The position numbers were made by a program, and so were the translations under genes. A stretch of 64,000 bases of DNA, taken from positions 32,001 to 96,000 of the forward strand of contig CAZELK010000002.1 of assembly GCA_964513145.1 (NCBI GenBank), in the 5' to 3' direction. Positions 2,325-63,248 of the stretch are shown in pieces (the first letter of the stretch is position 1; every line of letters starts with the position of its first letter). This stretch comes from Candidatus Woesearchaeota archaeon. Lineage in GTDB: Archaea; Nanobdellota; Nanobdellia; SCGC-AAA011-G17; JACPIM01. The notes under the pieces were generated by a model. The model did no database searches. It was given only the letters and a program-made list of their open reading frames with translations, and had not been told where the DNA came from.

Positions 2325-2365
2325 AAACTTCTTTTAGTCCTTGATTAAACTTTTTCTAAGGGTTT
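2325..2365 (-). repeat. Hairpin micro-element copy in the tRNA-Ile 3' trailer
   Basis: aaacccttagaaaaagtttaatcaaggactaaaagaagttt matches 47437-47477 (tRNA-Gly intron 2) at 36/41 positions by manual alignment. Confidence 0.85.
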
Positions 2366-2369
2366 AAAA

Positions 2370-2488
2370 TGGGCCCGATCAGATTTGAACTGACGGCCGC
2401 TCGATTATCAGTCGAGTGCTCCAATTGTCCATACTTTTAGTTTTGCCAAAGCTTTTCCTAAAAGCTTTCCAGACTAAGCTACGGGCCC
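2370..2488 (-). tRNA. tRNA-Ile(GAT) with a 44-nt D-loop intron (2425-2468, about position 19/20)
   Basis: Acceptor GGGCCCG, anticodon arm CTCGA-CT-GAT-AA-TCGAG, T-loop TTCAAAT. BHB: GTCT-GG|A pairs with GGAC-AA|T. No encoded CCA. Confidence 0.93.
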
Positions 2489-2540
2489 ATAAAGGAAACA
2501 CAATTATTTCATTTATTAAATTTTGCATATAAAAATTGAT

Positions 2541-2924
2541 TTAAAAATCAGTTAATTTAGAAAGTCTTCCTGAAACTTTGCCAGTAAAATACCTTGAGTC
2601 TTTTGGGATAAGGGGCACATAAACAGGATCTAGCTCTATTCCTAAATATCTGGCTTTGGTATAAATATGGCCTAGAGCATAGCAATAAGAATCACGTACA
2701 ATTTTATTAGCTTGCCTGAAAACAGCGATTTCACAAATTAAATCTTCAACAAATCCCCGCATTTTTTGCTCTATATTATTCATCTTCCTATTAACAGATA
2801 ATTTAGCAAGATCATACCTTCCTTCAGTCTTATGTTTAGTAATTTGAAATGATTTAGATTGTTTCAATTTTGTAACTAAATCATCTATTGAAGTTATCCT
2901 TGATTTAAGTTCTTTTTTATCCAT
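2541..2924 (-). CDS. Hypothetical protein (127 aa)
   Basis: Clean ORF with no recognised motif. Confidence 0.6.
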   Translation of the reverse strand: MDKKELKSRITSIDDLVTKLKQSKSFQITKHKTEGRYDLAKLSVNRKMNNIEQKMRGFVEDLICEIAVFRQANKIVRDSYCYALGHIYTKARYLGIELDPVYVPLIPKDSRYFTGKVSGRLSKLTDF

Positions 2925-2950
2925 AAACCCAATATAAAAAAGAAAGGCTT

Positions 2951-3112
2951 TTAATCCTTCCTTTTTTTCGTTCTAAAAGCCCTTATTAAATCATCAGGGC
3001 ATCTGGTTGTTTTATAGCAATTAGGGCAGATTAAGATAGGGTTATCAGCATCAAACTTATAAGGTCCCATAAAATTGTGGCATCCACATTTACATGTAAA
3101 TTCATATTCCAT
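2951..3112 (-). CDS. Small Cys-rich zinc-ribbon-like protein (53 aa)
   Basis: Manual translation MEYEFTCKCGCHNFMGPYKFDADNPILICPNCYKTTRCPDDLIRAFRTKKRKD, with CxC and CxxC motifs. Below the ORF-track cutoff. Confidence 0.7.
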   Translation of the reverse strand: MEYEFTCKCGCHNFMGPYKFDADNPILICPNCYKTTRCPDDLIRAFRTKKRKD

Positions 3113-3254
3113 TATTAATAAAAATCAAACTAATTATTTAAAGAAAAGCTGTATAAATTAATACTTTATTTTCTAAAAAATACAGATGCATATATTTTTG
3201 TTAAAAACTTTCAAAATAAAATTTTGTACTACTATTAAATTATTACTTCTACTA

Positions 3255-3296
3255 TTTATAAATACCACTGGACAAAACCTACTGGACAAGACAAAG
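3255..3296 (+). promoter_or_regulatory. TATA-like box followed by an ACTGGACAA direct repeat (putative operator)
   Basis: TTTATAAATA at 3255-3264, ACTGGACAA at 3267-3275 and 3281-3289, plus a partial GACAAAGAC. Confidence 0.45.
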
Positions 3297-3394
3297 ACCT
3301 GCCTAGCACTTTTAAAGTAAATTATCTTTTTACAATATAAGAAAAAGTTAAAAACATTTTGTCAAACTTTTTCAAAAAAATCGGAGGTACTAAA

Positions 3395-3604
3395 ATGATA
3401 ATGCAATTATTAAGCAAAAAAGAAGACAAATACATGAGTTGGGAAGAGTATAAAAAAAGGATGATAGAAATGCAGGTAATACATCTTATAGAGCAGTTCA
3501 TCAAACAAGATTCAAGTTATAGTTATGATGATCTAGAAAATTTAGACATAGCAAGATTTAAACAAATTGGGGGTGTTAAAAATGCAGGGAATATATTCGA
3601 ATGA
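3395..3604 (+). CDS. Hypothetical protein (69 aa)
   Basis: GGAGGT Shine-Dalgarno before ATG 3395, so this start is preferred over 3359. Confidence 0.6.
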   Translation: MIMQLLSKKEDKYMSWEEYKKRMIEMQVIHLIEQFIKQDSSYSYDDLENLDIARFKQIGGVKNAGNIFE

Positions 3605-3695
3605 GTTTAGGGAAGAGTTAATAGATGATGATGAGATCTCAGCAGAAGAATATTTTTTTATGCTTGGATATGAATCTGAAGATTTAGATTTTTAA
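3582..3695 (+). CDS. Acidic micro-protein (37 aa), paralog of 56678-56821
   Basis: MQGIYSNEFREELIDDDEISAEEYFFMLGYESEDLDF, with a GGGGGTG SD 6 nt upstream. Confidence 0.75.
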   Translation: MQGIYSNEFREELIDDDEISAEEYFFMLGYESEDLDF

Positions 3696-3730
3696 ATTTT
3701 ATTTTTTTATTTAATTTATAAAAATTAAAA

Positions 3731-4024
3731 ATGAATGAATTAAATTTTAAAGATAAATTTGAGAAAAATATAATCCTAACACTAGAACGAATAAAACATA
3801 TAAGTCTTCATATTCAAGTAAATAATTATATTTCAATCATTGAGAATACGTTAAAATATCCGGAGATTTTATCAAAAGACTCTGAAAAAAATATATATTA
3901 TTACCAAAAATATTTAAAGTTAGAGAACATATATTTTATAATAGTAGTTAAACTTACTAATGAAGAGGGTTCGATAATAACAGTTTATAAAATGCAAAAC
4001 CAAAAAAATGAAACAAAAAATTAA
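3731..4024 (+). CDS. Putative toxin (RelE/PBECR-like nuclease fold), partner of DUF2283
   Basis: LTLERIKHI...TLKYPE...IIVVK...GSIITVY pattern, overlapping the DUF2283-like gene. Confidence 0.55.
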   Translation: MNELNFKDKFEKNIILTLERIKHISLHIQVNNYISIIENTLKYPEILSKDSEKNIYYYQKYLKLENIYFIIVVKLTNEEGSIITVYKMQNQKNETKN

Positions 4025-4226
4025 AATATTGTATGATGAGGAAGGCGATTATTTAGAAATAAATTTAAGGAAAACTAAAGATACTTATTTTGATGAAATA
4101 AAAAAAGATTTTGCTCGAATTTTAGAAACAAAAACAAATAAAATTGTAGGTTATGCAGTTTTTAATTTTACAAAACAAAAAAACAAACCTATTGAAATCG
4201 AGATACCGACCGTAATTTCAGCTTAG
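4008..4226 (+). CDS. DUF2283-family protein (putative antitoxin)
   Basis: ILYDEEGDYLEI...KIVGYAVFNF pattern. Confidence 0.75.
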   Translation: MKQKIKILYDEEGDYLEINLRKTKDTYFDEIKKDFARILETKTNKIVGYAVFNFTKQKNKPIEIEIPTVISA

Positions 4227-4230
4227 AAAA

Positions 4231-5316
4231 TTAATCTAAAAAGTCTTTATTTTTAATTTTTTCAGGTAAGTATTTCTCAGAAATAAAACTTATACCTTTA
4301 GAAGTAAGGGACTGAATTTCTACTTTAGCTTCGAATTCTTTCATCATCTTAAATTGTCTTTGCCATTCTTTATTATCTTTAAACCAAGCATATTCTGAAA
4401 CTTGTTTAATTCTTGCATAATCTTTTTCATCTAATTTAATGAAGTGTTTTTTAAGATCGTATTTGATAACATCATCCATAGTGATACCAACATATTTTAC
4501 GCCCGGAATTGTTAATCTTCCTGACGCATGAGACAGCGCGATGCTGCCGTATTTAATTACGGAGTAAATATATGCACCGTAAATGTCCCCGTCACAGAGT
4601 ACATAAACTGGTAGCTTATGTTCTTCATATAATCTTTGTAATAATCTTCTAATTCCTCTTGTAGTTTGACCTTGTGAAGAAATTATAATACAATCATTTT
4701 TTTCCCAGAATTTATCTTCCTGCAAACGTTCCCAAACAGCTGCTTTTTCCATATAAAGAACATATTTAGCATTTACTTTCTTAAATATGATTTCATCAGT
4801 GATAGATGGGACACTCCACCCCCCACTACCCATTTTACTTAAGTCAATAGTATCTCCTTTATCTTCAATTACAACTTTTCCAGCTACACTTCCCATTTTA
4901 TTAGCAGCTACATGTAATTGTTCCCTGGAAAAATCAGTAATGACTTCTAAATCTTCAATAGCTTTGTCAGATTCGGTTTGATCATCAACTAGATTAATAT
5001 TTGTGCCTGGTATAGTTCTCTTTACCATGTAAAATACATCTCTTAAACTTGAATGTTTGCCAGAACTCAATAATTCATTTTTTATAACAGAGGCAACTTC
5101 AACAGTCTGTAAAAATTTCTTGGAATGTGCAACATTAAAGAAGCTCCTGGAAGACATTTTGTCTCCTAATTTTAGTATTTTTTGTTTAGTATCATAAACT
5201 ATATTGCTTAAATTTCTTAAGCTCATTTCAATTTCAGGATTTTTTCCTTTTTTAATTTGATCAACTATCTTATTGCCAAAATCTTCCAAAACTTTTTTTG
5301 ATTTATTTTCTGCCAT
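4231..5316 (-). CDS. top6A: DNA topoisomerase VI subunit A
   Basis: SLRDVFY active-site Tyr, MEKAAV and DGDIYG TOPRIM motifs. Confidence 0.97.
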   Translation of the reverse strand: MAENKSKKVLEDFGNKIVDQIKKGKNPEIEMSLRNLSNIVYDTKQKILKLGDKMSSRSFFNVAHSKKFLQTVEVASVIKNELLSSGKHSSLRDVFYMVKRTIPGTNINLVDDQTESDKAIEDLEVITDFSREQLHVAANKMGSVAGKVVIEDKGDTIDLSKMGSGGWSVPSITDEIIFKKVNAKYVLYMEKAAVWERLQEDKFWEKNDCIIISSQGQTTRGIRRLLQRLYEEHKLPVYVLCDGDIYGAYIYSVIKYGSIALSHASGRLTIPGVKYVGITMDDVIKYDLKKHFIKLDEKDYARIKQVSEYAWFKDNKEWQRQFKMMKEFEAKVEIQSLTSKGISFISEKYLPEKIKNKDFLD

Positions 5317-5318
5317 AA

Positions 5319-7040
5319 TTATTTGCCAAGCTTGGTTTGTCTATCCTTGCCAGATTTTTTCTTTTCTTTGCCTTTCTTTGTTTCTTTCTTATTATCTTCC
5401 ATTAACTCTTTTTGTTCTTCCATATCTTGCTTGATTTCTTCTTTTAACTCTTTATTTTCAACACTGCTTAACAATTCTTTCATATTTTTATGAAGTATTT
5501 TTGTAAGTTCCTCAGTTAGAATATTTTCTTTTTCATTAGTTAACATACTTAAAGCCCTGGATAATTCTGGAATATATTTGATAAATAAATCTATTTTTTC
5601 TTTTTGCTCTTTAGCTTTGACATTTTTCCTGATAAATATTCCTAGTCTTCTTCCGCATTCTTGCAATCCCAATTTAATTTCTTTAATTATATCTTCATAA
5701 TGGGCAATTGCGTCCTTGCTTTCAGATGTAAATGGCACCCATACAGATGCCATGTGGACAACTAATACTAAAGGTCCGTAAGGTAATGATCCTGAACTTT
5801 GCTGTAATCCATAAGGTCTCCAATTTATGTTTTGAACACTTTCAGTAATTGCACATGCGCCTTGTTGATATAATAAGGGAACCCTGTTTGCAAATCTCAT
5901 TAATCTGACTTGTCCTTCTTTTTCTAAATCTCCCCCAAATGCACAGCTCACTTCTATGGCAAAGGGTCTTCCTTTGTAAACTACAGGGCTTCTTGAAACA
6001 GCAGTATAAAAATCAGCATTAATTTCTTTTTTCAACCCTTTAACTAATAATTCTTCTCCAATTGGGCTGATGCAATTAGTAGGCGGAGCAATTATTTTTG
6101 TGTTCTGCATTGATTTATACAAACTTTCACTTTGTGCAAGATCTAACTCTTCTGGTTTTAATTTTGCATCCAATATTGCTTTATCACAAATCTCTTTTGC
6201 AGTTACAGAGCTAATCCTTGAAAAATCATTTTGTAAAAAAGAGCTTAATGTTCGTGACTCTGTGTTTTTCAGCATTTTAATTAAAATACCTAATTCAATG
6301 CCATAAGGATGCGGCTTAATTTCCTGTGCTTCAACAGGCAGTTCGTTAGTTGCCCTAGGATACTCAACTTTCTCATTTAAAGGATTTATATAAACAATTC
6401 TAGCATGCGGGTTTACAATTGCAGTTTGTTTTAAATATTCGTCAACACTTTGTTTTCCTTTTTGGTACTTTCCTTCTAATTCAAGTTCTACCTTGGTTCC
6501 ATGATCTTTATTCCAGTCAAAATTTTCCTCTTTAACAATTTCAGGTTCATTTTTTACTGTGTCAATATGCAGCCAATAATGATGTGCTTTTTGTTTAGGT
6601 CCGATTTTGGAAGTTATAATAACTGGTTTTCCAGTAGTTAATTGAGAATATAAAACAGCAGCGCTTATCCCAATTCCTTGCTGTCCTCTTTGCATTTTCA
6701 TAGCATGAAACTTGCTTCCATATAATAATTTTGCAAAAATTCTCGGAATTTGTTCTTTTACAATCCCAGGTCCATTATCTTCAACTATAATTTTAAACCT
6801 GCTTTCAGATAATTGTTTTATTTCGACAAAGATTTCGGGTAGTATCTTCATTTCTTGAGCTGCGTCAAGAGAATTATCGCAAGCTTCTTTAATTGCCATC
6901 AAAATTGCTTTAGCTGGACTATCAAAACCTAGTAAATGCCTGTTTTTGGTAAAAAATTCAGAAACTGATATTTCACGTTGCTTCTTTGCAAGCTCTTCAG
7001 CTTTAATCACTTCTTTTATTTCACTATCCTTTGACATCAT
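5319..7040 (-). CDS. top6B: DNA topoisomerase VI subunit B
   Basis: GHKL motifs KEACDNSLDA, EDNGPGI and QRGQQGIG, plus RFANRVPL. Confidence 0.98.
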   Translation of the reverse strand: MMSKDSEIKEVIKAEELAKKQREISVSEFFTKNRHLLGFDSPAKAILMAIKEACDNSLDAAQEMKILPEIFVEIKQLSESRFKIIVEDNGPGIVKEQIPRIFAKLLYGSKFHAMKMQRGQQGIGISAAVLYSQLTTGKPVIITSKIGPKQKAHHYWLHIDTVKNEPEIVKEENFDWNKDHGTKVELELEGKYQKGKQSVDEYLKQTAIVNPHARIVYINPLNEKVEYPRATNELPVEAQEIKPHPYGIELGILIKMLKNTESRTLSSFLQNDFSRISSVTAKEICDKAILDAKLKPEELDLAQSESLYKSMQNTKIIAPPTNCISPIGEELLVKGLKKEINADFYTAVSRSPVVYKGRPFAIEVSCAFGGDLEKEGQVRLMRFANRVPLLYQQGACAITESVQNINWRPYGLQQSSGSLPYGPLVLVVHMASVWVPFTSESKDAIAHYEDIIKEIKLGLQECGRRLGIFIRKNVKAKEQKEKIDLFIKYIPELSRALSMLTNEKENILTEELTKILHKNMKELLSSVENKELKEEIKQDMEEQKELMEDNKKETKKGKEKKKSGKDRQTKLGK

Positions 7041-7296
7041 GATTGAAAAAAATTATTTATTTATAAAGTTTTGTTTTTAAGCAGGTTAGGCAATTTTATA
7101 AAAATATTTTAATATATCAAAAATATGGGCTCTGATAAACAGACAAATTTATTTTTCAGAAGAAAATATTTAATTGATATTAATTATGTTAATTATTATT
7201 GGAGTAAAAATAGATTATATTAATAGCTGCAGTTGACAAAGATATACATTATCACATAATGCACACCATCTTAGAAATTGATTCGGAAATTTTATA

Positions 7297-7809
7297 CTAA
7301 AGTTCGTCTATTTTACTAAGTTCTCTTTCCATGTATTTGTAAGCATTTCCATGAGGCGCTCCCCTTAATAAAATTTCCATTCCTCTTTTGGCGATATCAA
7401 CTTGTATTATTTTGCCTATAATAGAAACAGTTTTTCCATAAATAACAATATTAGTATCAGTTAAATTTTCTACTGCTTCTCTTGCCTTTCCCTCTTTTCC
7501 AATAATCCTTGCTTTTAATCTCTCAAATTTCTTCTTGGATTTTCCTGTAAAATCTTTTATATTTATAATCTCAATGCAAAATTCATCTTTTAATAAATTC
7601 TTGGCAACTGAAGGGTTAAAACCACGGCCAACTGCCTTTACAATAAGATTGGCGTCATAAACTCCAATACCCTCTCCTTCAATAAAAACTCCGCCTTCTT
7701 TATCAACAGTTATCTTTGTATGTGTATCTCTCTCTATTGATTTCTTTACTTCTCCATTCTTTCCAATTAAAACTCCAACCCTTTCTTTGGGTATTCTTAA
7801 GTCATGCAT
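7297..7809 (-). CDS. KH-domain rRNA-processing protein (Dim2/Pno1 homolog)
   Basis: IGKNGEVK and RIIGKEGKAR KH motifs, AVGRGF, GAPHGNAY. Confidence 0.92.
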   Translation of the reverse strand: MHDLRIPKERVGVLIGKNGEVKKSIERDTHTKITVDKEGGVFIEGEGIGVYDANLIVKAVGRGFNPSVAKNLLKDEFCIEIINIKDFTGKSKKKFERLKARIIGKEGKAREAVENLTDTNIVIYGKTVSIIGKIIQVDIAKRGMEILLRGAPHGNAYKYMERELSKIDEL

Positions 7810-7813
7810 TTTT

Positions 7814-8158
7814 CTAGAATTCTTCTACATTTTCCAGCTTCTTAATATAATTCTTTTGTTTTAGCCATTCAATTTGAGATGGCCTGTATTTAAAAATTAT
7901 GTCTCCTTTTTCATCTCCACCTAAAGCCCAAGGTTCAACTAAAACATAATCTCCTTCTCTTAGCCATAATTTTCTTTTTAGTCTTCCTGGAATTCTGCAT
8001 ATTCTTACTTTTCCATCAAAACATTTCACTCTCATTCTACTGGCACCAAGTCTTTGGTCTAGCAACCCTATACTCTGGTTGCCTCTTGGTAATTTAACCC
8101 TTGAAATCTCGCTCTGTATTTCTTCTTGCTTTGCTAGCTCGTCGCTTTTCTTGCTCAT
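7814..8158 (-). CDS. eif1a: Translation initiation factor aIF-1A
   Basis: LGASRMRVKCFDGKVRICRIPGRLKRKLWLREGD. Confidence 0.96.
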   Translation of the reverse strand: MSKKSDELAKQEEIQSEISRVKLPRGNQSIGLLDQRLGASRMRVKCFDGKVRICRIPGRLKRKLWLREGDYVLVEPWALGGDEKGDIIFKYRPSQIEWLKQKNYIKKLENVEEF

Positions 8159-8195
8159 ATATTAAGATTTAATTAACAAATGTTTATAAAAGTTC

Positions 8196-9038
8196 TTATT
8201 CCCTATTGATAATATAGAAAATTTCATTTTCAGTGTCAAGTCTTTCATAATTTAAATTTATTTTACCCAATAAATTTACAAACCATTTCCTTTCTATGTT
8301 TCTCATATTTTTCAAAGAAATAGTTTTTTTAGAAAAACTTACAACTAAGTATTTGCAGTTTATATTGTCAATTAAATTATTGAAGAAAATTATCCTCTTA
8401 TTGGCCAGATCTAAAAACTTAAATAAAAAACATACATCTGCTTTTTCATAATTAAAATAATCAACTATATTTCTAACTCTCGCCTTGCCGAAAATTCCGA
8501 ATTTGGAAACTTCCTTAAAATAATTGTTTAAAAAATCAACATCACTCTTGCTTATATCATATGCAAAATAATTTCCTTTAAATTGGCTTAATATAATTGA
8601 ACATGGATTCAAGCCGCAAGCCAGATCTAATATTGATTTAGGCTTTCCAGTAATATTGAAAATAAGATTATAAACTTTTGAATAATTCTCAAGTCTTTCT
8701 CTTGAAGAAGTGTGCAGTTTTAAAATCTCTTTGGATAGCTTTTTTATTGCGTCTAAATTTTCTGTTTTTTGTAATTCTACTAGCAACTTATTTTTCTTAG
8801 ATTGTTTCTTTATTTGAAAAACCCCATAATTTTTATACAATTGCTTTCTGATTTCTTTAGTTAATTGTTTAAATTTTTTATTCTTAATAATTAAATCTAA
8901 ATCTTTTTTAAAAAGTCCATTAAAATAATCATTTTTTAAGTATTTGGATAAAATAGTTGATACATAAGAATCATCAATCCCAAAATTTTTCTTTCCCTTA
9001 ATCAAAAAAATTAACTTCTGAATCTTGTTTTTCTTCAT
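8196..9038 (-). CDS. ArmA/RmtB/FmrO-like 16S rRNA (guanine-N7) methyltransferase homolog
   Basis: LHTSSRERL, ILDLACGLNP, AYDI, DVCFLFK, VVSFSKKTIS and WF...ENEIFY follow the motif order of the ArmA/Rmt family. Confidence 0.82.
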   Translation of the reverse strand: MKKNKIQKLIFLIKGKKNFGIDDSYVSTILSKYLKNDYFNGLFKKDLDLIIKNKKFKQLTKEIRKQLYKNYGVFQIKKQSKKNKLLVELQKTENLDAIKKLSKEILKLHTSSRERLENYSKVYNLIFNITGKPKSILDLACGLNPCSIILSQFKGNYFAYDISKSDVDFLNNYFKEVSKFGIFGKARVRNIVDYFNYEKADVCFLFKFLDLANKRIIFFNNLIDNINCKYLVVSFSKKTISLKNMRNIERKWFVNLLGKINLNYERLDTENEIFYIINRE

Positions 9039-9640: not shown

Positions 9641-9672
9641 TTTAGATTAGGAGTTGATAAGAACCTTGGTTC

Positions 9673-10083
9673 TTATATTTTGGCTGTGACAGAATGCTTT
9701 GCTCCGCAAGCACTACACCTTAGAAATAAAAATCGGTCTTCTTTAATTAATTTCGTGTCAGGTTTGCCGCATTCTTTGCATAAAACAAAATTCTTGGCAA
9801 ATTGTTCTATTCTTTGGTTAATAAAATTAGAATTTAATTTTCTTCCAAAAATTAATCTTTGCCCGTCAATTTGTGCAGGCGTAGCTAATTCTTTTTGTAA
9901 ATATTTTAGAAGCTGTGCAGGTTCTCTGCCAAATGTATTACATATAGCTATGAAGTTTGTAACTATAGTCTTGTTCCCTTCTACATGTCCAGTAACTGTC
10001 GGGATTTCAAATCTCTCCTTTGTATTAACAATAGTTTTAGGAAGTTCATTTCTCGCTTTTTTCAATAATTCAACATATTCCAT
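9673..10083 (-). CDS. eif2b: Translation initiation factor aIF-2 beta subunit
   Basis: ERFEIP, GNKTIVTNF, KELAT, CKECGKPDT and CSACGA. Start taken at ATG 10083. Confidence 0.96.
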   Translation of the reverse strand: MEYVELLKKARNELPKTIVNTKERFEIPTVTGHVEGNKTIVTNFIAICNTFGREPAQLLKYLQKELATPAQIDGQRLIFGRKLNSNFINQRIEQFAKNFVLCKECGKPDTKLIKEDRFLFLRCSACGAKHSVTAKI

Positions 10084-17991: not shown

Positions 17992-18099
17992 CTATTTATT
18001 GATAACTTAATATATTAATAAAGTTTTCTTTCAAAATTGATTTTGTTTATTGTAAGTTTTTGACTAGACTTGAAACATTTTCTTTTGAAGAAAAGCTTA

Positions 18100-18223
18100 T
18101 GGGCCCGGAGTGATTTGAACACCCGACATATACGGCTTCAGCGTATTGCTCTCCTTAGCCACTCTTCTTAGTTTTTTTGATTAAACTTTTTTCTAAAAAG
18201 TTTACAGGCTGAGCTACGGGCCC
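18100..18223 (-). tRNA. tRNA-Phe(GAA) with a 50-nt D-loop intron (18155-18204, position 18/19)
   Basis: Anticodon arm ATACG-CT-GAA-GC-CGTAT. BHB: AGCC-TG|T pairs with GGCT-AA|G. Splicing yields GCTCAGCCTGGGAGAGC. Confidence 0.93.
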
Positions 18224-20835: not shown

Positions 20836-22359
20836 ATGTCATTTATAATGGAAAATTATGATGCTATATTTGTATTCCCTAAGTTATGGGAAAAAGAATT
20901 TAATCCACCTAATCAGCCGCCTTATGGTTTGTTAATGTGCTCTGACTTATTATTAAAAAAAGGATACAATGTTTTAGTTTATGATGAAAGATTGGAAAGC
21001 CTGGGTGTAAAAAGCAGGTCAGAATTAGTTCAGGCTGTAAAGCACAGCAAGCCTTTATTTTTTGGAATATCTTCGCAATCAGGTCCAATGATTGAAAATG
21101 GTCTGTTAAATTCAAAATTCTTTAAACATGAATGTCCAGATACTCCTGTAGTCTGGGGTGGTGTTCATCCAACATTATTGCCAGACCAGACAATCAAACA
21201 TCCATTAATTGATGCTGTAATAAAAGGAGAAGGAGAACTGCCTTGTTTGGGATTGGCTGAAAATTTAAAAAAAGGAAATAAAGATTTTTCAAAAATTGAT
21301 GGTTTATATTGGAAAGACAAAAATAAAAATATTAAAATAAATAAGCCTTGCCCAGGTGTTCCAGATTTAGATGAAATTAACATGAGGTGGGATTTAGTAA
21401 ATCCGCAGCATTATATAAGAGACATTGATGGAAAGAAATGGTTAGGGGTTATCACAAGCAGAGGATGTCCTTTTAGATGTGGTTTTTGTTATAACATATC
21501 TTTCTTTGGAATGAGAAAATTCCGTGGATGGAGTCCTAAAAAATCCATAGAAGAAATAAAAAAAGTTTTGGAATGGGGTGTTGATTTTATTAATTTTGAT
21601 GATGATTATATTTTCGGCGACCCACTAAGAATGTGGGGTATTTTAGATTTAAAAAAACAAGAAAATTTAAACTTCGAATGGAAAGCCCCGATAAGAGGCC
21701 ATCTATTAAGAGATGCATTAACAAAAAGACTCAAAGATGGTGGCTGTGCAAGTGTAACAATTGGTGCAGAAAGTGGAAGTGAAAAAGTTTTAGATTATAT
21801 GACAAAAGATTCTGGTCCAGACGCTTATTATATGGCTGCCAAGAATTTAAAAAGATACGATATTCAGGGGAATTTCAGTTGGATTTTAGGTTATCCCGGT
21901 GAAACACTAAAAGATGTTTACATAACTCTAAATGTAATTAAAGACTTGGAAGAAATAAATCCAGACACAGAGCATGTTATTAACATTTATGCACCTTATC
22001 CAGGCACGCCTAGTTTTGATCAGGCTATAGAACGTGGATTCGTGCCTCCACCATCATTAGAAGGATGGACTGATAATTTCCGTGAAGCTTGCAAAGAATT
22101 GTCATACATTGATGAAAAAAATAAAAAAATAATGGAAGCAATACGATGGGCTGGTATTTTCAGGACAATGTACAAAAGAAAGAGATTATATGCAAGCTGG
22201 ATTAGACCTATTGTAAATGTTTTGGGGACTATTTCTAATGTAAGATGGAACCATAATCTATATAGCCTGCCAATAGAGCAAAAATCAGTAATTCTGGGAA
22301 GAGAAGTTTTAAAAAGAATGACAAGAAAGAAAAACGAAGAAATTGAAAACTTCTGTTAG
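20836..22359 (+). CDS. B12-binding-domain radical SAM protein
   Basis: PPYGLL, VVWGGVHPT, GEGE, TSRGCPFRCGFC, GAESGSEK and PYPGTP. Confidence 0.93.
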   Translation: MSFIMENYDAIFVFPKLWEKEFNPPNQPPYGLLMCSDLLLKKGYNVLVYDERLESLGVKSRSELVQAVKHSKPLFFGISSQSGPMIENGLLNSKFFKHECPDTPVVWGGVHPTLLPDQTIKHPLIDAVIKGEGELPCLGLAENLKKGNKDFSKIDGLYWKDKNKNIKINKPCPGVPDLDEINMRWDLVNPQHYIRDIDGKKWLGVITSRGCPFRCGFCYNISFFGMRKFRGWSPKKSIEEIKKVLEWGVDFINFDDDYIFGDPLRMWGILDLKKQENLNFEWKAPIRGHLLRDALTKRLKDGGCASVTIGAESGSEKVLDYMTKDSGPDAYYMAAKNLKRYDIQGNFSWILGYPGETLKDVYITLNVIKDLEEINPDTEHVINIYAPYPGTPSFDQAIERGFVPPPSLEGWTDNFREACKELSYIDEKNKKIMEAIRWAGIFRTMYKRKRLYASWIRPIVNVLGTISNVRWNHNLYSLPIEQKSVILGREVLKRMTRKKNEEIENFC

Positions 22360-22398
22360 AAACTTTTTTTAAAAGTTTCATCAAAAGCGAGATGTAGA
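22357..22398 (+). repeat. Hairpin micro-element copy flanked by TAGA direct repeats
   Basis: TAGA-aactttttttaaaagtttcatcaaaagcgagatg-TAGA; 20/21 match to the 3' part of tRNA-Gly intron 1. Confidence 0.85.
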
Positions 22399-41245: not shown

Positions 41246-41361
41246 ATCTCCAAAAAAATTATTTTCTTATTTAAATATTATTATAAAACAAAATAGAAAT
41301 AAATATGTAACCAATTAAAGACAAAAGTTTCCTAAAAATAATAATTTAATTTTCTCAAAAA

Positions 41362-41397
41362 GCTACCAGTTTTGCTTAAGCTTTTTTTGAAAGCTTA
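41362..41397 (-). repeat. Hairpin micro-element copy (AAGCTT variant) beginning at the aCPSF1 stop codon
   Basis: taagctttcaaaaaaagcttaagcaaaactggtagc versus the tRNA-Val intron taagcttttagaaaagcttaaacaaaactagaagc. Confidence 0.8.
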
Positions 41398-47410: not shown

Positions 47411-47568
47411 TGCGCTGGCCGAGGTTTGAAATCCCGAAACTTCTTTTAGTCTTTGATTAAACTTTTTTGAAAAGTTTGCTCGGGTCAGAGCCTCTTTACT
47501 CGCTTTTGATTAAACTTTTTCAAAAGTTTATTGGCAAGGCCCAATACTAACCACTATACTACCAGCGC
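47411..47568 (-). tRNA. tRNA-Gly(GCC) with two introns: 37/38 (47494-47531) and 53/54 (47431-47478)
   Basis: Acceptor GCGCTGG/CCAGCGC. BHB1: TTGC-CA|A with GTAA-AG|A. BHB2: CCCG-AG|C with CGGG-AT|T, with both outer helices intact. Confidence 0.93.
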
Positions 47569-48074: not shown

Positions 48075-48075
48075 A

Positions 48076-48209
48076 TGGGCCGAGAAGGATTTTCATTGCT
48101 TCTAGTTTTGTTTAAGCTTTTCTAAAAGCTTAATTTGAACCTTCGATCTAGACGGTGTAAACGTCTTGTCATTTGCAGAGTTAAAACTTAGCCACTAGAC
48201 CACCGGCCC
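48076..48209 (-). tRNA. tRNA-Val(TAC) with two introns: D-loop (48173-48189, 17 nt) and T-loop 59/60 (48090-48133, 44 nt)
   Basis: Anticodon arm AGACG-TT-TAC-AC-CGTCT. T-loop BHB: TTCA-AA|T with TGAA-AA|T. The D-loop BHB is weaker (GTGG/CTGC). Confidence 0.9.
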
Positions 48210-56547: not shown

Positions 56548-56578
56548 AAATTATTAAGAATCAAAATTATTATTTAAA

Positions 56579-56656: not shown

Positions 56657-56677
56657 AAAAGAGGTGCGGGGGTAAAA

Positions 56678-56821: not shown

Positions 56822-56828
56822 GGGAAAT

Positions 56829-57328: not shown

Positions 57329-58648
57329 ATGATAGAAATAGCAAGCATAGGCGGTTATAATGAAGTAGGCAAAAACATGACTGCAGTTAAGGTAGATGAT
57401 GAAGTAATAATTTTAGATGTTGGCTTGTATTTGCCTGCAGTTGTTGGTTTCGAAGATGAACAAAATTTTCTTTCAAGTGATGAAATGATAAAAATTGGGG
57501 CAATACCAAATGATACAAGCATAAAAGACTGGTGGTCCAAGATAAAAGGTGTGGTAATTAGTCATTGTCATTTGGATCATTCAGGCGCAGTCCCATATTT
57601 ATGTAATAAATATAATGCCCCGATTATAGGGACGCCATTTACAATAGAAGTTTTAAAAAAAATATTGAGAGACAAGGAAGTCAAAGTACAAAATAAATTA
57701 ATGTCAATACAACTGGGGAAGAAGTTTGATATAACAAAAAATATTCAATGTGAATTAGTCAATGTAACTCACTCGACCCTGGAAACTGCAATCGTAGTTC
57801 TATTCACAAAATATGGTAATATTGCTTATGCAAATGATTTCAAGTTAGATGAAACTCCGACATTGGGCAAAAAAACAAATTATGAGAGTTTAGGCAATTT
57901 AAAAAATACAAAAGTTCTGATAATGGACTCATTGTATTCTGAATCAAAATCAAAAACTCCCTCTGAAAATGTTGCAAAGGAAATGTTAAAAGATATTCTG
58001 TTAAATAAAAACCATAAAGGAAACGCAATTATAGTCACAACATTTTCATCGCATCTAGCCAGATTAAAAAGCATAGCCGAATTTGGGAAAAAAATGAATA
58101 GAAAAGTTGTTTTTTTCGGAAGAAGCCTGAATAAATATGTAGAATCTGGAGAAAATTTAAGTCTGGTAAAATATGATGTTGAATCAGTTTTTTGGCCGAG
58201 AAAAATAGCAAAAAAAATAAGGGAAATTGAAAAAGAGGGTCGTGGAAAATACTTGATAGTTTGCACAGGCAACCAGGGCGAACCAAAATCAGTTTTGTCA
58301 AAATTAGTTAATAAAACATTTAATTTTGAGTTTTTGCCAAATGATGTAGTAATATTTTCATGTCATGTCATACCAACAGAAGTCAGCATAAATAACAGAA
58401 GATTAATAGAAGAAAAATTGGAAAAATATAAAGTAAAAATATATAGGGATATACACCAGTCAGGTCATGGTTCTGGAGAAGACATGAAAACTTTAATAAA
58501 TCTGTTAAAGCCCTCACATATAATACCAACTCATGGGGATCATGATAAACTAATCCACCTAAGCAATATAGCAACAGAAATTGGTTATGTTTATGGAAAA
58601 ACAGTCCATTTGTTAAATGATGGAGAAAGACTAAAAATAGAAAAATGA
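57329..58648 (+). CDS. rnj: Ribonuclease J
   Basis: GGYNEVGKNMT, SHCHLDH, TGNQGEP, HQSGH and PTHG. Confidence 0.95.
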   Translation: MIEIASIGGYNEVGKNMTAVKVDDEVIILDVGLYLPAVVGFEDEQNFLSSDEMIKIGAIPNDTSIKDWWSKIKGVVISHCHLDHSGAVPYLCNKYNAPIIGTPFTIEVLKKILRDKEVKVQNKLMSIQLGKKFDITKNIQCELVNVTHSTLETAIVVLFTKYGNIAYANDFKLDETPTLGKKTNYESLGNLKNTKVLIMDSLYSESKSKTPSENVAKEMLKDILLNKNHKGNAIIVTTFSSHLARLKSIAEFGKKMNRKVVFFGRSLNKYVESGENLSLVKYDVESVFWPRKIAKKIREIEKEGRGKYLIVCTGNQGEPKSVLSKLVNKTFNFEFLPNDVVIFSCHVIPTEVSINNRRLIEEKLEKYKVKIYRDIHQSGHGSGEDMKTLINLLKPSHIIPTHGDHDKLIHLSNIATEIGYVYGKTVHLLNDGERLKIEK

Positions 58649-58959
58649 AAAAACCAGTTAAAGAAGATAAAAAGGAAAAAATAATTGATGTATTAAAAAA
58701 AGTAAATGATCCTGAAATTCATGTTGATGTATGGACTTTGGGATTAATTTATAATATAGAAATAAGTAAGGAAATAGTGGAAATAAGAATGACCTTTACT
58801 TCACCAATGTGCCCTTATGGTCCTTTCTTAGTAGATGATATTAAAAATAAAATAAAGGAAGCAAATAAATGGGTAAAGGAAGTAAAAGTTGAAGTTGTTT
58901 TTCAGCCAGTATGGCAGCCTTCTGACGAATTAAAAGAAATGCTGGGCATTCCAATATAA
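58645..58959 (+). CDS. SufT/DUF59 metal-sulfur cluster biosynthesis protein
   Basis: VNDPEI...LGLIY...MTFTSPMCP...PVW. Confidence 0.92.
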   Translation: MKKPVKEDKKEKIIDVLKKVNDPEIHVDVWTLGLIYNIEISKEIVEIRMTFTSPMCPYGPFLVDDIKNKIKEANKWVKEVKVEVVFQPVWQPSDELKEMLGIPI

Positions 58960-59019
58960 AATATACATTATTTAATAATCATTCTTAAAAACTAGTTCAT
59001 CATTTTTTGTTTGGGGGTG

Positions 59020-59060
59020 TAGAAAAGTTATTTTGATTAAACTTTTCCAAAAAGTTTAGA
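59020..59060 (-). repeat. Hairpin micro-element copy abutting the mre11 start codon, flanked by TAGA direct repeats
   Basis: Plus strand reads TAGA-aaagttattttgattaaacttttccaaaaagtt-TAGA(TG). Confidence 0.85.
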
Positions 59061-60262
59061 TGAAATTTGCGCATCTCTCTGACTGCCATATCGGCGGCTG
59101 GCGTGAGCTGGAATTAAGAAACCTGGGTATAGAAAGTCTCAGAAAAGCAGTCGAAATATGTATTGAAGAAAATGTAGGATTTATTCTAATTGCAGGAGAC
59201 TTATTTGATACTGCCTTGCCACAGACAGAACTAATAAAAGAAGTAGCCTTAATTCTAAAAAAACTAAATGAGCATGATATTGGTGTTTATGCCATACCAG
59301 GAAGTCACGACTTTTCTCCATCTGGAAAAACAATGATGGATGTTCTTGAAAATGCCGGGTTATTGCATAATGTAGTTAAATTTGATGAAAATGGAAAACT
59401 ACAATTTACATTAGACAAAACAAACACAAAAATCACAGGTTTATACGGAAAAAAGTTAGGTTTGGAAAAATTTGATTACGCAAGATTGGATAAATCAAAT
59501 TTAGAGAAAGAAAAAGGCTTCAAGATATTTATGTTTCATACAGCACTGGAAGAATTCAAGCCAGCTGAAATGGAGAAAATGGAATCTTATAGTTATAGAG
59601 ACTTGCCAAAAAATTTCAATTATTATGCCGGGGGCCATGTACATTATATTTTTGATATAAAAAAAGAAAATTACGGTTTGATAACATTTCCAGGCCCGAT
59701 GTTCCCAAATAATTTCAAGGAATTGGAAGAGCTAAGTTGCGGCGGGTTCTATATAATAGATCATGATCTAAATTTAAAACATATAAAAGTAAAATTAAAA
59801 GAAACTTTAAACTTAAAAGTTAATGTAAATAATTTAAGCAGCCAAGAAGCAGAAGAGAAAATAATAAATGAAATAAAGACTAATGATATTAAAGATAAGA
59901 TTATTCTATTAAGGGTATTCGGAACTTTAATAACAGGAAAAGTAACAGACATAAATTTTAGGAAAATTACAGTTTTGGCTAAAGAAGCATTTATACTTCT
60001 GAAAAATACCCATAAATTAACAAGCAAGGAAAATGAAATTTTGGAGAATGAAAACTATAATAGTGTAAAGGAAATTGAAGATTCAATTATAGAAAAAAAT
60101 CTGCCAGAACTTGTTCTAAGCAAAAAAGGAAAAGAAAATGATTTTGCTTTAATAAAAGAAATAATGAAGACACTGGATAAAGAAAAAGATGAGGGCGAAA
60201 AAAATACAGATTTCGAAAAAAGAATTATAAAAGACAGTGAGAAAATTCTAGAACTATGTTAA
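59060..60262 (+). CDS. mre11: DNA double-strand break repair nuclease Mre11
   Basis: SDCHIG, AGDLFD, GSHD and GGHVH. Confidence 0.93.
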   Translation: MKFAHLSDCHIGGWRELELRNLGIESLRKAVEICIEENVGFILIAGDLFDTALPQTELIKEVALILKKLNEHDIGVYAIPGSHDFSPSGKTMMDVLENAGLLHNVVKFDENGKLQFTLDKTNTKITGLYGKKLGLEKFDYARLDKSNLEKEKGFKIFMFHTALEEFKPAEMEKMESYSYRDLPKNFNYYAGGHVHYIFDIKKENYGLITFPGPMFPNNFKELEELSCGGFYIIDHDLNLKHIKVKLKETLNLKVNVNNLSSQEAEEKIINEIKTNDIKDKIILLRVFGTLITGKVTDINFRKITVLAKEAFILLKNTHKLTSKENEILENENYNSVKEIEDSIIEKNLPELVLSKKGKENDFALIKEIMKTLDKEKDEGEKNTDFEKRIIKDSEKILELC

Positions 60263-62307
60263 TAAAAAAAGTCAGATTAAATAATATCCGCAGCTATATT
60301 AATGATGAAATAAATCTGGATAAAGGCATAACATTACTGGCTGGGAATATTGGTTCTGGCAAGTCAACTATTTTATTGGCTATAGATTTTGCTTTATTTG
60401 GATTAAGAAAGGGTTATCTAAGCGGAAGTTCTTTGTTAAGAAATGGAGAGCAAAATGGATATGTAGAGTTAACATTTGAAATTGACAGTAAAGAAATTAC
60501 AATAAGAAGAACACTTAAAAGAACACAAAATTCAATATCCCAGGATTATGGTTATTTAAAAATAAATGAAAATGAAAAAGAATATGCAGCAGTTGAATTA
60601 AAACAATTTATCATAAATACGCTAAACTATCCAAAAGAATATTTAACAAAATCAAAGTATTTTATTTATAATTACACAATTTATACGCCTCAGGAAGATA
60701 TGAAACAAATTCTTCTCGGAGAAAGGGAACACAGATTAGATACAATAAGAAAGGTTTTTGGTATAGACAGATATCAGAGAATAAAAGAAAATTCAAAAAT
60801 AATAAACGATTTTCTCAAATCAAAAAAAAGAGAATTATCATTGATAGCTGACAATTACCATAATCAAGTGGAAGAAAAGATCAAAAAAGAAAATAAGCTA
60901 ACAGAAAATAAGCAAATTGCAGAAGAATGCAGGATTAAACTGGGATATGTCTTAAAGATTGTTTCGGATAAAAACGAAGAGATAAAGGTTGTTGAAGAGA
61001 GCATTAAGGATCTAAACAATGATAAAAAAGAAGCTGAATTAAAAACTTTGGAGATTAATTATAAAAATAACCAGATTAAAAAGAATGATGCTGAAATAAA
61101 CAGACTGGAAAAAGACATTGAGAAATTAATATCCGAAGTAAAAGATGAGATATTAATTGATAATAATATTAAAATAGATAAAGAAAATCAATTCAAAAAA
61201 TTAAATGATGAGCTTAATGATCTTAAATCAAAAGAAAAAGTTATTGCTCTAAAAAAGATTTCATCTTCAGAAGTAAAAAAAAGCATAGAAAAGCTCGATA
61301 TTTGCCCGACATGCCTGCAAAAAGTTTCTGAAGAATATAAAGACAACATAATAAGCAAGGAAAATGAAATAAACTACAATCTAGAAAAAGAGAAAGTTGA
61401 GATAAATAACAAAATAGAGCAGATAAATAAGGAAATTTATGCATTAAAAGGAGAAATTGACTTAATAAATAAGAAAGAAGGTTTTATAGAAATATCAAAA
61501 CTGAAAAAAATAAATTTAGAAGAAAAGATTAAAAAAACTGAAGATTTAAAGACTAATAATAAAAATTTAAACATAGAAATAATAAAATTAAATGAAATAA
61601 TAGTCAAAATACAGCTAAAAATATCGGGGTTCTTGGATATTGAAAAAATTTATAATAGTTTAAAAGAAGAATTAATTAAAAATCAGTCTGAACAAAGAGA
61701 TTTTGAAATAAAGAAAGGAATTATAGAACATGAAATTATTTTAATAAACAAAGACCTGGAAAAAATAAACAAAGAATTAGATTTTATAAAGGAAACAAAA
61801 AAGAAGCTGGAAAAAAATAATTTATTGCAGAATTTTTTTGAAAATAAATTTATAAATATTTTAGAAGCAATAGAGAAAAGAGTTTTAATAAAAATAAAAA
61901 ATGATTTTGATAATTTCTTTCAAAAATGGTTTTATATGCTGGTAGAAAGTGAATCAATAAAAGTTAAATTAGATGAAGAATTCTCGCCGATAATTGAAAT
62001 TGCCGGGCATGAAATTGAATATATTAATTTGTCAGGCGGTGAGAAAACAGCAGCAGCTTTAGCTTATAGGCTAGCCTTAAATCAAATAATAAACACATTC
62101 GTAAGCGAAATAAAAACAAAGGATGTCTTGATTTTAGATGAACCAACAGACGGGTTTTCAGCAGAACAATTGGATAGGTTAAGATTTGTTTTAGAAGAAT
62201 TAAATATCAACCAAATAATCATAGTTAGTCATGAAAGCAAAATAGAGAGTTTTGTTGACAGGATAATTAAATTGCAAAAATATAATCATATAACCCAGAT
62301 TATTTAA
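60256..62307 (+). CDS. rad50: Rad50 ATPase
   Basis: GNIGSGKST, zinc hook CPTC, LSGGE and ILDEPT. Confidence 0.93.
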   Translation: MLIKKVRLNNIRSYINDEINLDKGITLLAGNIGSGKSTILLAIDFALFGLRKGYLSGSSLLRNGEQNGYVELTFEIDSKEITIRRTLKRTQNSISQDYGYLKINENEKEYAAVELKQFIINTLNYPKEYLTKSKYFIYNYTIYTPQEDMKQILLGEREHRLDTIRKVFGIDRYQRIKENSKIINDFLKSKKRELSLIADNYHNQVEEKIKKENKLTENKQIAEECRIKLGYVLKIVSDKNEEIKVVEESIKDLNNDKKEAELKTLEINYKNNQIKKNDAEINRLEKDIEKLISEVKDEILIDNNIKIDKENQFKKLNDELNDLKSKEKVIALKKISSSEVKKSIEKLDICPTCLQKVSEEYKDNIISKENEINYNLEKEKVEINNKIEQINKEIYALKGEIDLINKKEGFIEISKLKKINLEEKIKKTEDLKTNNKNLNIEIIKLNEIIVKIQLKISGFLDIEKIYNSLKEELIKNQSEQRDFEIKKGIIEHEIILINKDLEKINKELDFIKETKKKLEKNNLLQNFFENKFINILEAIEKRVLIKIKNDFDNFFQKWFYMLVESESIKVKLDEEFSPIIEIAGHEIEYINLSGGEKTAAALAYRLALNQIINTFVSEIKTKDVLILDEPTDGFSAEQLDRLRFVLEELNINQIIIVSHESKIESFVDRIIKLQKYNHITQII

Positions 62308-62881
62308 AAAGTTTCATAAAAAAATAAATAATTATGCCAAATAAACCCCCAATTAAATTAAATATCATATCCAAAGAAGAATTTATCCATGCCCCAATTA
62401 ATGGGTCTTGCTTAAAACCTAAATCTCCTGTGCCGCCAAAATAAAAAAGTCCGTCTCCCTGACCAAAAACCAAATACCCGAGATATTCAATTATTTCAAT
62501 TACAGATCCAACACCCAAGGCCGTACATAAAGCCAATAAAATTATTATGGCTTTATTTTTAGACCATCTGGAAAAATAATTTAAGAAAAATAAACTCAGA
62601 GAGAACCCACCAATAAAATGAGTTAAATGATCATATTGAAAATAAACTGGTGAATTATTGTAAAATCCAAAGACACCAAGATTATGAGATAATAAAGATA
62701 AAAATATCAAAGAAAAGATTGCGTTGTTTAAATTAAATTCTTTATAAGACTTGAATAAAAAAATAAGGATGATAACGGAAGCTGATAAATCGAGGACATA
62801 AGGGCTTCTTTTTTGTATAGAATAAATAATTAATAATATAAAAATAATAATAAATCCATGAAATAAATTCTCTTTTTTCAT
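62300..62881 (-). CDS. Multi-pass membrane protein (DUF2238-like)
   Basis: QYDHLTHF...EIIEY...DMIFNLIGG. Confidence 0.75.
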   Translation of the reverse strand: MKKENLFHGFIIIFILLIIYSIQKRSPYVLDLSASVIILIFLFKSYKEFNLNNAIFSLIFLSLLSHNLGVFGFYNNSPVYFQYDHLTHFIGGFSLSLFFLNYFSRWSKNKAIIILLALCTALGVGSVIEIIEYLGYLVFGQGDGLFYFGGTGDLGFKQDPLIGAWINSSLDMIFNLIGGLFGIIIYFFMKLFK

Positions 62882-62900
62882 TTTGGGATTAAAAAATAAA

Positions 62901-63248
62901 ATAGGTGTGTTATAAGCCAGCTTCTGTTGAATTTCCTTTCGGAAAAATTCAGGCTAACATTTTACTAAGCGTCTGTAATAGACTTGCACTAGTCAGGGCT
63001 TGCCGTTTCATCCATTCCTATGGAATGTCTTTGGGTTAACTCATTTCCATTTCAGGAAATTTCGCCATGTTCATCCTACCCATAGGGGGTCTCGTTTCTG
63101 AGCAGTTGCCAACTTTTTCAAGTTCTTTTTTTCAAAAGTGACACTTTCACTTTCAAAAAAAGTTTTTTATAGCTTTTTCAAAAGTTTAAGTGGCTGGACT
63201 TTCCTCAGACAAGTTTAAGGCTTATCCGATAGTTAGCTGCACACCTAT
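62901..63248 (-). ncRNA. rnpB: RNase P RNA (type A-like)
   Basis: Conserved segments GAGGAAAGTCC, CAGAAAC, TGAAACGG and ACAGAAGCTGGCTTA. P1 (ATAGGTGTG/CACACCTAT), P2, P3, P4 and a P19-like hairpin pair by eye. Confidence 0.93.

Follow-up and report, generated by a model that had tools for sequence, protein, structure and literature searches.

A short hairpin unit is dispersed through the genome of a Candidatus Woesearchaeota archaeon, referred to here as G000 (977,603 bp in 18 contigs, ~29% GC, 98.8% complete), and a 64,000-nucleotide stretch of its contig C2 (positions 32001-96000; the window of this study, in which positions are counted from the first letter) carries copies both in the introns of tRNA genes and at the boundaries of protein-coding genes. 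The copies constitute a real repeat family whose intron and non-intron members are homologous, their sites turn over between sister species, and units have been inserted into junctions that were ancestrally tight. With more confidence than doubt, the unit is read here as a non-coding mobile mini-element resembling the repetitive extragenic palindromes (REPs) of bacteria, inserted as DNA in a strand-specific manner and persisting where it is harmless, including as the body of bulge-helix-bulge (BHB) introns in tRNA genes; it occupies such introns, and probably seeds them. An earlier note on this DNA had proposed that tRNA introns and gene junctions contain members of a single repeat family, which behaves like a non-autonomous REP or miniature inverted-repeat transposable element (MITE), and that proposal is supported. 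The archaeal RNase P RNA and the heavily interrupted tRNA genes fit a placement of G000 among Woesearchaeota-like DPANN archaea. Comparisons were made across 41 genomes of the family and order, among which G000-G003 represent one genus and G008, G019, and G020 represent other genera.

The repeat unit in tRNA introns and at gene junctions

Strict patterns of the hairpin arms match the window 5 and 2 times, where 0.02 and 0.00 matches would be expected. For the genome as a whole, 41 copies were aligned in a single orientation (T-run, TTG-N-TT, arm, loop, arm) to give a profile that was searched with nhmmer, which returned 70, 62, and 53 matches in G000 at or above 10, 12, and 15 bits, respectively. 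At the same thresholds the reversed genome yielded 2, 0, and 0 matches (with 44 at 5 bits or more) and a block-wise dinucleotide-shuffled genome yielded 3, 2, and 0. The existence of the unit, as asserted in the earlier note, is thus borne out by 62-70 copies against 0-3 in the controls, and the motif scores far above shuffled sequence genome-wide.

The unit is 30-45 bases long and comprises AT-rich arms of 8-9 bp around a loop of 1-6 nt, with a conserved A-rich tail on one side only. Its consensus reads approximately TAAACTTTT-loop-AAAAGTTTAATCAAAAAC, and the family divides into a few discrete sub-families; the tail AATCAAAA, often followed by ACTAA when the unit is read hairpin-first, is common to the copies within introns and those outside them. 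A related sub-family with the arms AACCC/GCGTT and the tail ACGGAAAAAC contributes ~12 further copies. The flank base, the third base of the arm, and its arm partner are linked in three combinations (A/A/T, C/G/C, and G/G/G), which occur 21, 7, and 5 times in G000 and 27, 7, and 15 times in G001 and G003 together. Because the third combination is non-pairing, so that the linkage includes an unpaired position, these combinations mark copy lineages and not selection for the stem alone. The folding energies of single copies are mostly no better than those of shuffles (z -0.6 to -2.4), and the hairpin is therefore defined by the conservation of its sequence and not by its stability. Rfam holds no family for the unit or for its bacterial and archaeal contexts, with the exception of a group II intron domain V near one Methanosarcinales copy; plasmid and phage collections gave no match to the unit, and no occurrence of the motif string was found in the literature searched.

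Nine copies in the window score 17-23 bits, five of them in tRNA introns and four elsewhere. The latter (2334-2367, 22358-22393, 41361-41397, and 59031-59058) had been recognized in the earlier note, which also placed a copy within the RNase P RNA; that part of its list did not stand, as the putative copy scores 5.4 bits. Degenerate copies that it reported near 18080, 35803, 48255, and 51861 score 3.6-6.4 bits, and all of these were rejected as family members since they fall at the noise level where controls also score. The units of the window, the tRNA genes that contain them, and the discarded RNase P candidate are as follows.

2334-2367, minus strand: unit in the tRNA-Ile 3' trailer, separated from the discriminator base by 4 T (17.0 bits, nhmmer)
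2370-2488, minus strand: tRNA-Ile(GAU) gene with one 44-nt D-loop intron (2425-2468); partial Rfam tRNA match at C2:34378-34430, BHB GUCU/GGAC by hand
2432-2468, minus strand: unit of the AAGC sub-family forming the tRNA-Ile intron (22.3 bits, exact arm pattern)
18100-18223, minus strand: tRNA-Phe(GAA) gene with one 50-nt D-loop intron (18155-18204); Rfam tRNA match of 32 bits over the 3' part
18169-18202, minus strand: unit of the AAAC sub-family forming the tRNA-Phe intron (20.2 bits, exact pattern)
22358-22393, plus strand: unit with its hairpin (22360-22378) immediately past the stop of a 507-aa plus-strand open reading frame (ORF), 0 nt to the stop (21.0 bits)
41361-41397, minus strand: unit with its hairpin (41378-41396) overlapping the stop of a 633-aa minus-strand ORF by 2 nt (20.0 bits)
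47411-47568, minus strand: tRNA-Gly(GCC) gene with introns at 37/38 (47494-47531) and 53/54 (47431-47478), from orthologue comparison
47446-47477, minus strand: unit in the tRNA-Gly 53/54 intron (22.1 bits; strict BHB CCCG/CGGG, inner helix 8 bp)
47500-47527, minus strand: unit in the tRNA-Gly 37/38 intron (19.7 bits)
48075-48209, minus strand: tRNA-Val(UAC) gene with a small intron (~48169-48185) and a 44-nt T-loop intron (48090-48133), from orthologue comparison
48099-48130, minus strand: unit of the AAGC sub-family forming the tRNA-Val T-loop intron (17.8 bits), specific to G000 by orthologue alignment
59031-59058, minus strand: unit that reads tail-first along the plus strand, with the hairpin end 2-3 nt upstream of the ATG (59060) of a 400-aa ORF on that strand (22.9 bits)
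63171-63188, minus strand: claimed RNase P RNA copy, unsupported (5.4 bits), inside the RNase P RNA (62901-63248)

All four tRNA genes, those for Ile, Phe, Gly, and Val, are minus-strand genes, and together they hold six introns. None of them was found by ARAGORN, the genes being visible only with the inserts removed, and the unit in this way conceals tRNA genes from standard finders. Five of the six introns are filled by the unit, as the earlier note had described, the exception being the small intron of tRNA-Val, and its observation that the hairpin begins 1-2 nt past the 5' cut holds in all five, with the BHB read by hand. The BHB helices so read are GUCU/GGAC, AGCC/GGCU, UUGC/GUAA, CCCG/CGGG, and UUCA/UGAA; strict BHB motifs are returned by an automatic scan for the tRNA-Gly 53/54 intron and for unit-bearing tRNA introns on contigs C9 and C16, and relaxed motifs are discerned by hand in tRNA-Ile, tRNA-Phe, tRNA-Gly 37/38, and tRNA-Val. 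Removal of the introns of tRNA-Phe and tRNA-Ile restores canonical D-arms (by hand). The five unit inserts are predicted spliceable BHB introns. The trailer copy at 2334-2367 is near-identical over ~31 nt, tail included, to the copy in the tRNA-Gly 53/54 intron. The copies outside tRNA genes were also considered as hidden BHB introns or processing sites, an idea that was rejected since 17 of the 59 pass the BHB scan and random positions do so in 23% of cases, which leaves no signal.

Two RNA features in the window merit separate mention. The small tRNA-Val intron (~14-17 nt) occurs at the same position in all five genomes compared, is freely variable in sequence, and contains no unit. Compared with the Rfam model, the RNase P RNA, which is of archaeal type, is expanded by 48 nt at a helix tip, at the place of the claimed copy, and carries further inserts.

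Long ORFs hold only ~8 of the 70 profile matches in G000, though ORFs cover 83-87% of the genome. Among 59 located hairpins, 16 start between -3 and +1 nt from a same-strand stop codon, which is often a TAA made up of T and the first two A of the arm, and 3 have a stop codon within the hairpin loop; 7 end 2-3 nt from the ATG of an opposite-strand gene, at least 14 lie inside tRNA genes, and others adjoin tRNA genes on either side or form tandem arrays. The distance from a unit to the next start is variable (13-193 nt). The stop that adjoins the copy at 22358-22393 is accompanied by units of other sub-families in G001 and G003. An archaeal promoter with a B recognition element and TATA box was rejected as a general explanation of the unit, since only the 7 of 59 stand at a fixed distance, the DNA strand dictates the orientation, and the unit is missing from orthologous sites. 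The upstream profile of 917 ORF starts in G000 is A-rich at -38 to -32, T-rich at -30 to -28, and A-rich at -26 to -22, with a weak rise in G at -12 to -6; this general promoter profile is typical of leaderless mRNAs and differs from the unit.

Turnover of sites and orientation by DNA strand

An exact 22-base pattern of the unit is present in 10-26 copies in 7 genomes (all four of the genus together with G008, G019, and G020) and in 0-1 copies in the 34 other genomes of the family and order, and the same pattern read backwards is found in none of the 41. Coding DNA is only 65-80% identical among congeners (about 75%), and the unit is thus far better conserved than genes. Of 42 syntenic sites that hold a unit in G001 and G003, 11 have one in G000 as well, 3 have a weak one there, and 28 are empty; an 8-nt stop-start junction of G000 (C1:181059-181069) presents a clean presence/absence difference of 44-46 nt.

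Within tRNA genes, the T-loop intron of tRNA-Val exists only in G000, the gene being uninterrupted at that point in G001, G002, G003, and G008; the tRNA-Val genes of G001-G003 have no unit in the T-loop and carry one in the 3' trailer, at the same position as the trailer copy of tRNA-Ile in G000. The introns of tRNA-Gly stand at 37/38 and 53/54 in G000, at 37/38 only in G001 and G008, and in the D-loop and at 37/38 in G002 and G003, so that the unit-bearing 53/54 intron is missing from the orthologues of G001, G002, G003, and G008.

In the ribosomal-protein operon, the S13/S4 and S4/S11 junctions are 1-25 nt long and hairpin-free in at least 25 genomes of the order, G008 included. Only in G000-G003 do these junctions reach 30-190 nt, filled with units that belong to different sub-families at the same junction in the four species, the S4/S11 unit of G002 being in the opposite orientation. 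The restriction of expanded junctions to these four genomes, with mixed sub-families and orientation, indicates lineage-specific insertions into minimal spacers, and the hairpins stand flush with codons because inserts in spacers of 1-4 nt must abut the neighbouring codons. The empty sites in relatives that the earlier note had proposed to look for are therefore many, at syntenic junctions, in tRNA-Val and tRNA-Gly, and in the ribosomal operon. In the S13-S4-S11 operon of G000 (C2:96500-116400), the last two codons of S4 are supplied by a unit.

Units are also found within other elements. The 3' guide-RNA region of a TnpB (IS1341-type) element in G000 (C7:19019-20324) has two, one in the tip of the last hairpin and one at the stop, neither of which is present in the homologous regions of G001 or G008; a decayed TnpB paralogue (C1:189680-190130) has one of these units duplicated in tandem. 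In G001 (contig C32), a unit of 39 nt is inserted in frame within the TnpB reading frame, between copies of a 12-nt direct repeat that may be a target duplication or may have arisen by replication slippage. TAA is present at both ends of several insertions, which is not significant in AT-rich DNA and a mere hint of a target or duplication.

The orientation of the unit is set by the DNA strand. Among 80 oriented copies in G000, all 12 on contig C3, 14 on C9, 5 on C4, and 4 on C6 point one way within their contig; on C2, 9 of 10 point one way at 34-91 kb and 8 of 9 the other way at 97-124 kb, with a single flip (91-97 kb) located in the window's final 4 kb, a region in which gene direction diverges too. 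Orientation switches in 12 of 68 pairs of adjacent copies, whereas 100,000 shuffles gave 33.9 switches on average and never fewer than 17. The lock extends over 30-115 kb regardless of gene direction, is seen per contig in G001 and G003 as well, and has few exceptions, one being the copy at 22358-22393. Where the neighbouring gene is on the majority strand the hairpin abuts its stop, and where the gene is on the minority strand the same absolute orientation sets the hairpin against its ATG; a fixed absolute orientation beside genes of either strand thus produces the two position classes, stop-flush and ATG-flush. Such a rule favours insertion as DNA and disfavours an RNA route. Replication-coupled single-strand transposition, as carried out by IS608 and ISDra2, yields a DNA-strand rule of this kind, and insertion of the unit is probably coupled to replication. 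G000 has a single orc1/cdc6 gene (C3:~100-1259); GC skew follows gene direction and is no help in placing the origin, and the three near-complete single-contig archaeal genomes with the unit (L224, L226, and L257) have only 1-3 copies each, which are uninformative on flips at origin or terminus.

Occurrence beyond the order and known systems

The exact unit occurs across domains. Among species representatives, an exact 24-base pattern has at least 125 matches on more than 116 contigs. The archaea among the matches listed are Woesearchaeota, Pacearchaeota, Nanoarchaeota, Micrarchaeota, Aenigmatarchaeota, Altiarchaeota, Iainarchaeota, Methanosarcinales, Methanophagales, Methanobrevibacter, and Methanobacterium, and the bacteria are Acutalibacteraceae, Ruminococcus, Oscillospiraceae, and Aminicenantes; the GC fraction of these loci is 0.25-0.55 and their flanks are non-conserved. 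In loci of Micrarchaeota, Diapherotrites, and Nanoarchaeia, the unit is again found within tRNA genes. The bacterial contigs encode LuxS, PBP5, CdaA, and similar proteins, and since these are genuine bacterial genes the contigs are not mis-binned archaeal DNA. Letter-for-letter sharing among DPANN archaea, methanogens, and bacteria of gut and digester would make this an unusual, domain-crossing mini-element.

Some of the distant loci have distinctive surroundings. In contigs of metagenome-assembled Acutalibacteraceae genomes (L186, L207, L221, and L183), the unit is present in both arms of a palindromic multi-hairpin composite of ~300 bp with a central terminator-like hairpin, and the frequency of this composite at contig ends suggests that it is probably a high-copy repeat that breaks assemblies. 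On the Methanosarcinales contig L213 (250-900), a group II intron domain V is found 270 nt downstream of the unit, and the unit itself stands behind a conserved word, GCGAAGCGTT, which precedes it in contigs of Methanophagales and Methanobacteriota too; a family of group II introns may thus carry the unit.

Bacterial REPs and REP doublets (BIMEs/REPINs) are mobilized by RAYT (Y1 HUH) transposases (PMC2817692). The unit resembles them in being a short imperfect palindrome with a conserved asymmetric flank, in its tens of copies, nearly all extragenic and often just past stops, and in the turnover of its sites between relatives. Inverted doublets of the unit are few and tail-to-tail (a tRNA intron at G000 C11:25381-25440 and junctions of G002 and G003), most copies being single. 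It is unlike REPs in that the genus's four genomes encode no RAYT/Y1 transposase, and hence no cognate HUH enzyme, and in its archaeal host, its predicted spliceable copies in tRNA genes, and its occurrence as the same unit across domains. No report of REP-like elements in archaea was found in the literature. The mobilization of REPs by RAYTs in bacteria was reportedly a subject of work by Bertels and Rainey.

Elements of the IS200/IS605 family are said to undergo strand-specific, replication-coupled transposition of single-stranded DNA, as reported by Ton-Hoang et al. in 2010. The ends of these insertion sequences (ISs), and their miniature derivatives (PATEs), share with the unit a hairpin with an adjacent short conserved sequence and a single orientation relative to the chromosome strand, and the word TTGAT beside the unit hairpin is one that we take to resemble the ISDra2 target. 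The unit differs from them in that G000-G003 have no TnpA, the resident TnpB elements have other ends and themselves host unit insertions, and the TnpA elements of relatives bear GC-rich hairpins. The Rickettsia palindromic elements, which Ogata et al. reportedly found inserted into genes in 2000, are like the unit, as are MITEs, in being small palindromic repeats tolerated in functional genes, for which the in-frame 39-nt copy in the TnpB of G001 is the parallel; the unit is much shorter than the Rickettsia elements and in RNA genes would be neutralized by predicted splicing, not by translation. The ~300-bp palindromic composite of Firmicutes, with the unit in both arms, is MITE-like; unlike a MITE mobilized by a DDE transposase, the unit has no terminal inverted repeats in common with an autonomous IS, the TAA ends and the 12-nt direct repeat being suggestive only.

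As with archaeal BHB introns, the insert interrupts the tRNA structure and its removal restores the mature sequence, and there are orthologues without the intron at the T-loop of tRNA-Val and at the 53/54 and D-loop positions of tRNA-Gly. Families of tRNA introns in Thermoproteales are described, in the accounts cited here, in terms of "intron transposition" (Fujishima et al., 2010, via PMC4090602 and bioRxiv 10.64898/2026.10.13.758758). The unit is comparable in its gain and loss between close relatives and in that the BHB motif limits persistence, and differs in occupying stop/start junctions, trailers, and other RNAs as well; it is, moreover, strand-locked, and thus looks like a general DNA element rather than the result of intron-to-intron copying. 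The mechanism of intron gain in archaeal tRNA genes was called unknown in a 2014 review (PMC4090602), and a 2026 census of Asgard tRNA genes offers no general arrival route (bioRxiv 10.64898/2026.10.13.758758). A mobile mini-element may help to explain such gain. In G000 the bodies of introns are copies of a dispersed repeat whose presence at sites of many kinds changes between sister species, which makes the origin of archaeal tRNA introns testable.

Proposed route of insertion and rival explanations

If the unit is a mobile mini-element, it would enter the chromosome as DNA and always point the same way relative to the strand. Its target would most likely be single-stranded DNA at the replication fork, in a manner that can be likened to that of IS200/IS605 elements and REPs. 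Copies would survive only at harmless sites, such as minimal spacers, in which the hairpin would come to lie flush with a stop or start codon, the leaders and trailers of tRNA genes, and the loop tips of other RNAs, for instance in the TnpB guide-RNA region. Inside tRNA genes, neighbouring bases could form a BHB from which the splicing endonuclease can excise the insert. That the mechanism is transposition, and that insertion creates new introns beyond occupying older mini-introns, are steps that we infer. The gain of the tRNA-Val T-loop intron favours new or transferred introns, and introns of the T-loop and D-loop could pass between tRNA genes via conserved flanks.

Several observations weigh against this account or against parts of it. 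The tRNA-Gly gene of G019 has at 53/54 a 20-nt intron that matches the tail of the G000 intron without its hairpin, and a similar tail-only mini-intron is present in the D-loop of tRNA-Gly(CCC) in G000 itself; these favour the entry of hairpins into older mini-introns, so that some introns may predate the hairpin, and the suggestion in the earlier note that the element is neutralized by acquiring BHB ends is no more than a hypothesis. The S13 stop and the site at C2:54358 hold a unit in all species compared, which could mean selection for function. The seven copies placed 2-3 nt before an ATG present a TATA-like TTGATTAAA at about -27 to -19 and, since the promoters of this genome are of the leaderless type, could represent a variant promoter. 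The majority of genes point the same way as the strand lock, for which reason coupling to replication is put no higher than probable; the only tRNA example on a minority strand (C3:57190-57400, unit tail-first) is weak, at 4.6 bits.

A mobilizing enzyme has likewise not come to light. The earlier note envisaged a HUH, RAYT, TnpA, or other IS transposase with matching ends, and none was found in searches for Y1_Tnp, RVT_1, and TnpB in the 41 genomes and for DDE_Tnp_1, rve, and Phage_integrase in G000. Y1_Tnp/RAYT (PF01797) has no match in G000-G003, G019, or G020, and its presence in 12 of the 41 genomes is unrelated to the motif. RVT_1 has no match in G000, G001, or G019, and neither TnpB nor reverse transcriptase genes track the motif across the 41 genomes. 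G000 has a single DDE_Tnp_1 gene, without matching ends, no match to rve, and three tyrosine recombinases detected as Phage_integrase; the hairpins of TnpA-bearing IS200/IS605 elements in relatives are unrelated to the unit.

The strongest competitor to a mobile element would be a functional signal at gene boundaries, such as a bidirectional terminator, a promoter cassette, or a stabilizer of mRNA ends, that is maintained by selection, the tRNA introns having reused a convenient AT-rich hairpin. It would explain why hairpins are flush with stops in 16-19 of 59 cases and 2-3 nt from an ATG in 7, why the core is much better conserved than the surrounding genes, and why orthologous S13 stops have a unit in all four species, though of different sub-families; the T-run/A-run core also resembles the TATA region of G000 promoters, and some tRNA promoters are similar. 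Several findings stand against such a signal: most genomes of the order, including the unit-bearing G008, are hairpin-free at the same operon junctions, 28 of the 42 syntenic sites are empty, and orientation is set by the DNA strand and not by the adjacent gene. The spacing to the next start is not fixed, copies occur within tRNA genes, in a TnpB reading frame, and in RNA loop tips, and the identical unit is present in bacteria, whose promoters and terminators work differently. A boundary signal is on balance an unlikely account of the family, but one to be taken seriously. A functional role at gene ends, as is known for some bacterial REPs, could coexist with mobility.

Mobility at the level of RNA, with excised introns re-ligated into RNAs by the splicing endonuclease and RtcB and then reverse-transcribed, so that the copies outside tRNA genes would be retro-inserted introns, fits the insertions in RNA loops (the D, anticodon, and T loops of tRNAs and the loop tip of the TnpB guide RNA) and the resemblance of the trailer copy at 2334-2367 to a complete intron body; reverse transcriptases of the diversity-generating retroelement type exist in related genomes. 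The failure to detect RVT_1 in G000, G001, and G019 speaks against it, as do an orientation set by the DNA strand and kept beside genes of either strand, the frequency of BHB motifs in non-tRNA copies, which is not above background, and the copies in bacteria, which lack the archaeal splicing endonuclease; we regard such a route as highly improbable. Least credible of all, to the point of being scarcely tenable, is that the hairpins have no common origin and recur by chance or composition in a genome of 29% GC. The AT-richness of G000 and folding energies that are mostly no better than those of shuffles speak for this, but it is confronted by the excess of profile matches over controls, the zero counts of the pattern control in 41 genomes, the sub-family linkage that reaches unpaired positions, and identical units in genomes of up to 55% GC.

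A bolder form of the mobile-element reading is offered tentatively, as a conjecture that may well be wrong: a cross-domain element of ~30-45 nt would insert into single-stranded DNA in a strand-specific manner without a host-encoded transposase, and would become a spliceable BHB intron at once when it lands beside a fitting 4-mer in the loop-coding part of a tRNA gene. If true, it would supply the route, long looked for, by which non-canonical introns arrive in archaeal tRNA genes, and might also be a step on the way to the split tRNA genes of DPANN archaea.

A second, unrelated palindrome family, AAGAACC-NN-GGTTCTT, is represented at 9659-9674 in the window and at C3:6523-6538, C3:19036-19051, and C3:57163-57178 elsewhere in G000. 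It often adjoins a GGAGGTGAT-like word that matches the Shine-Dalgarno sequence, just upstream of start codons, and takes the place of the unit at some orthologous junctions.

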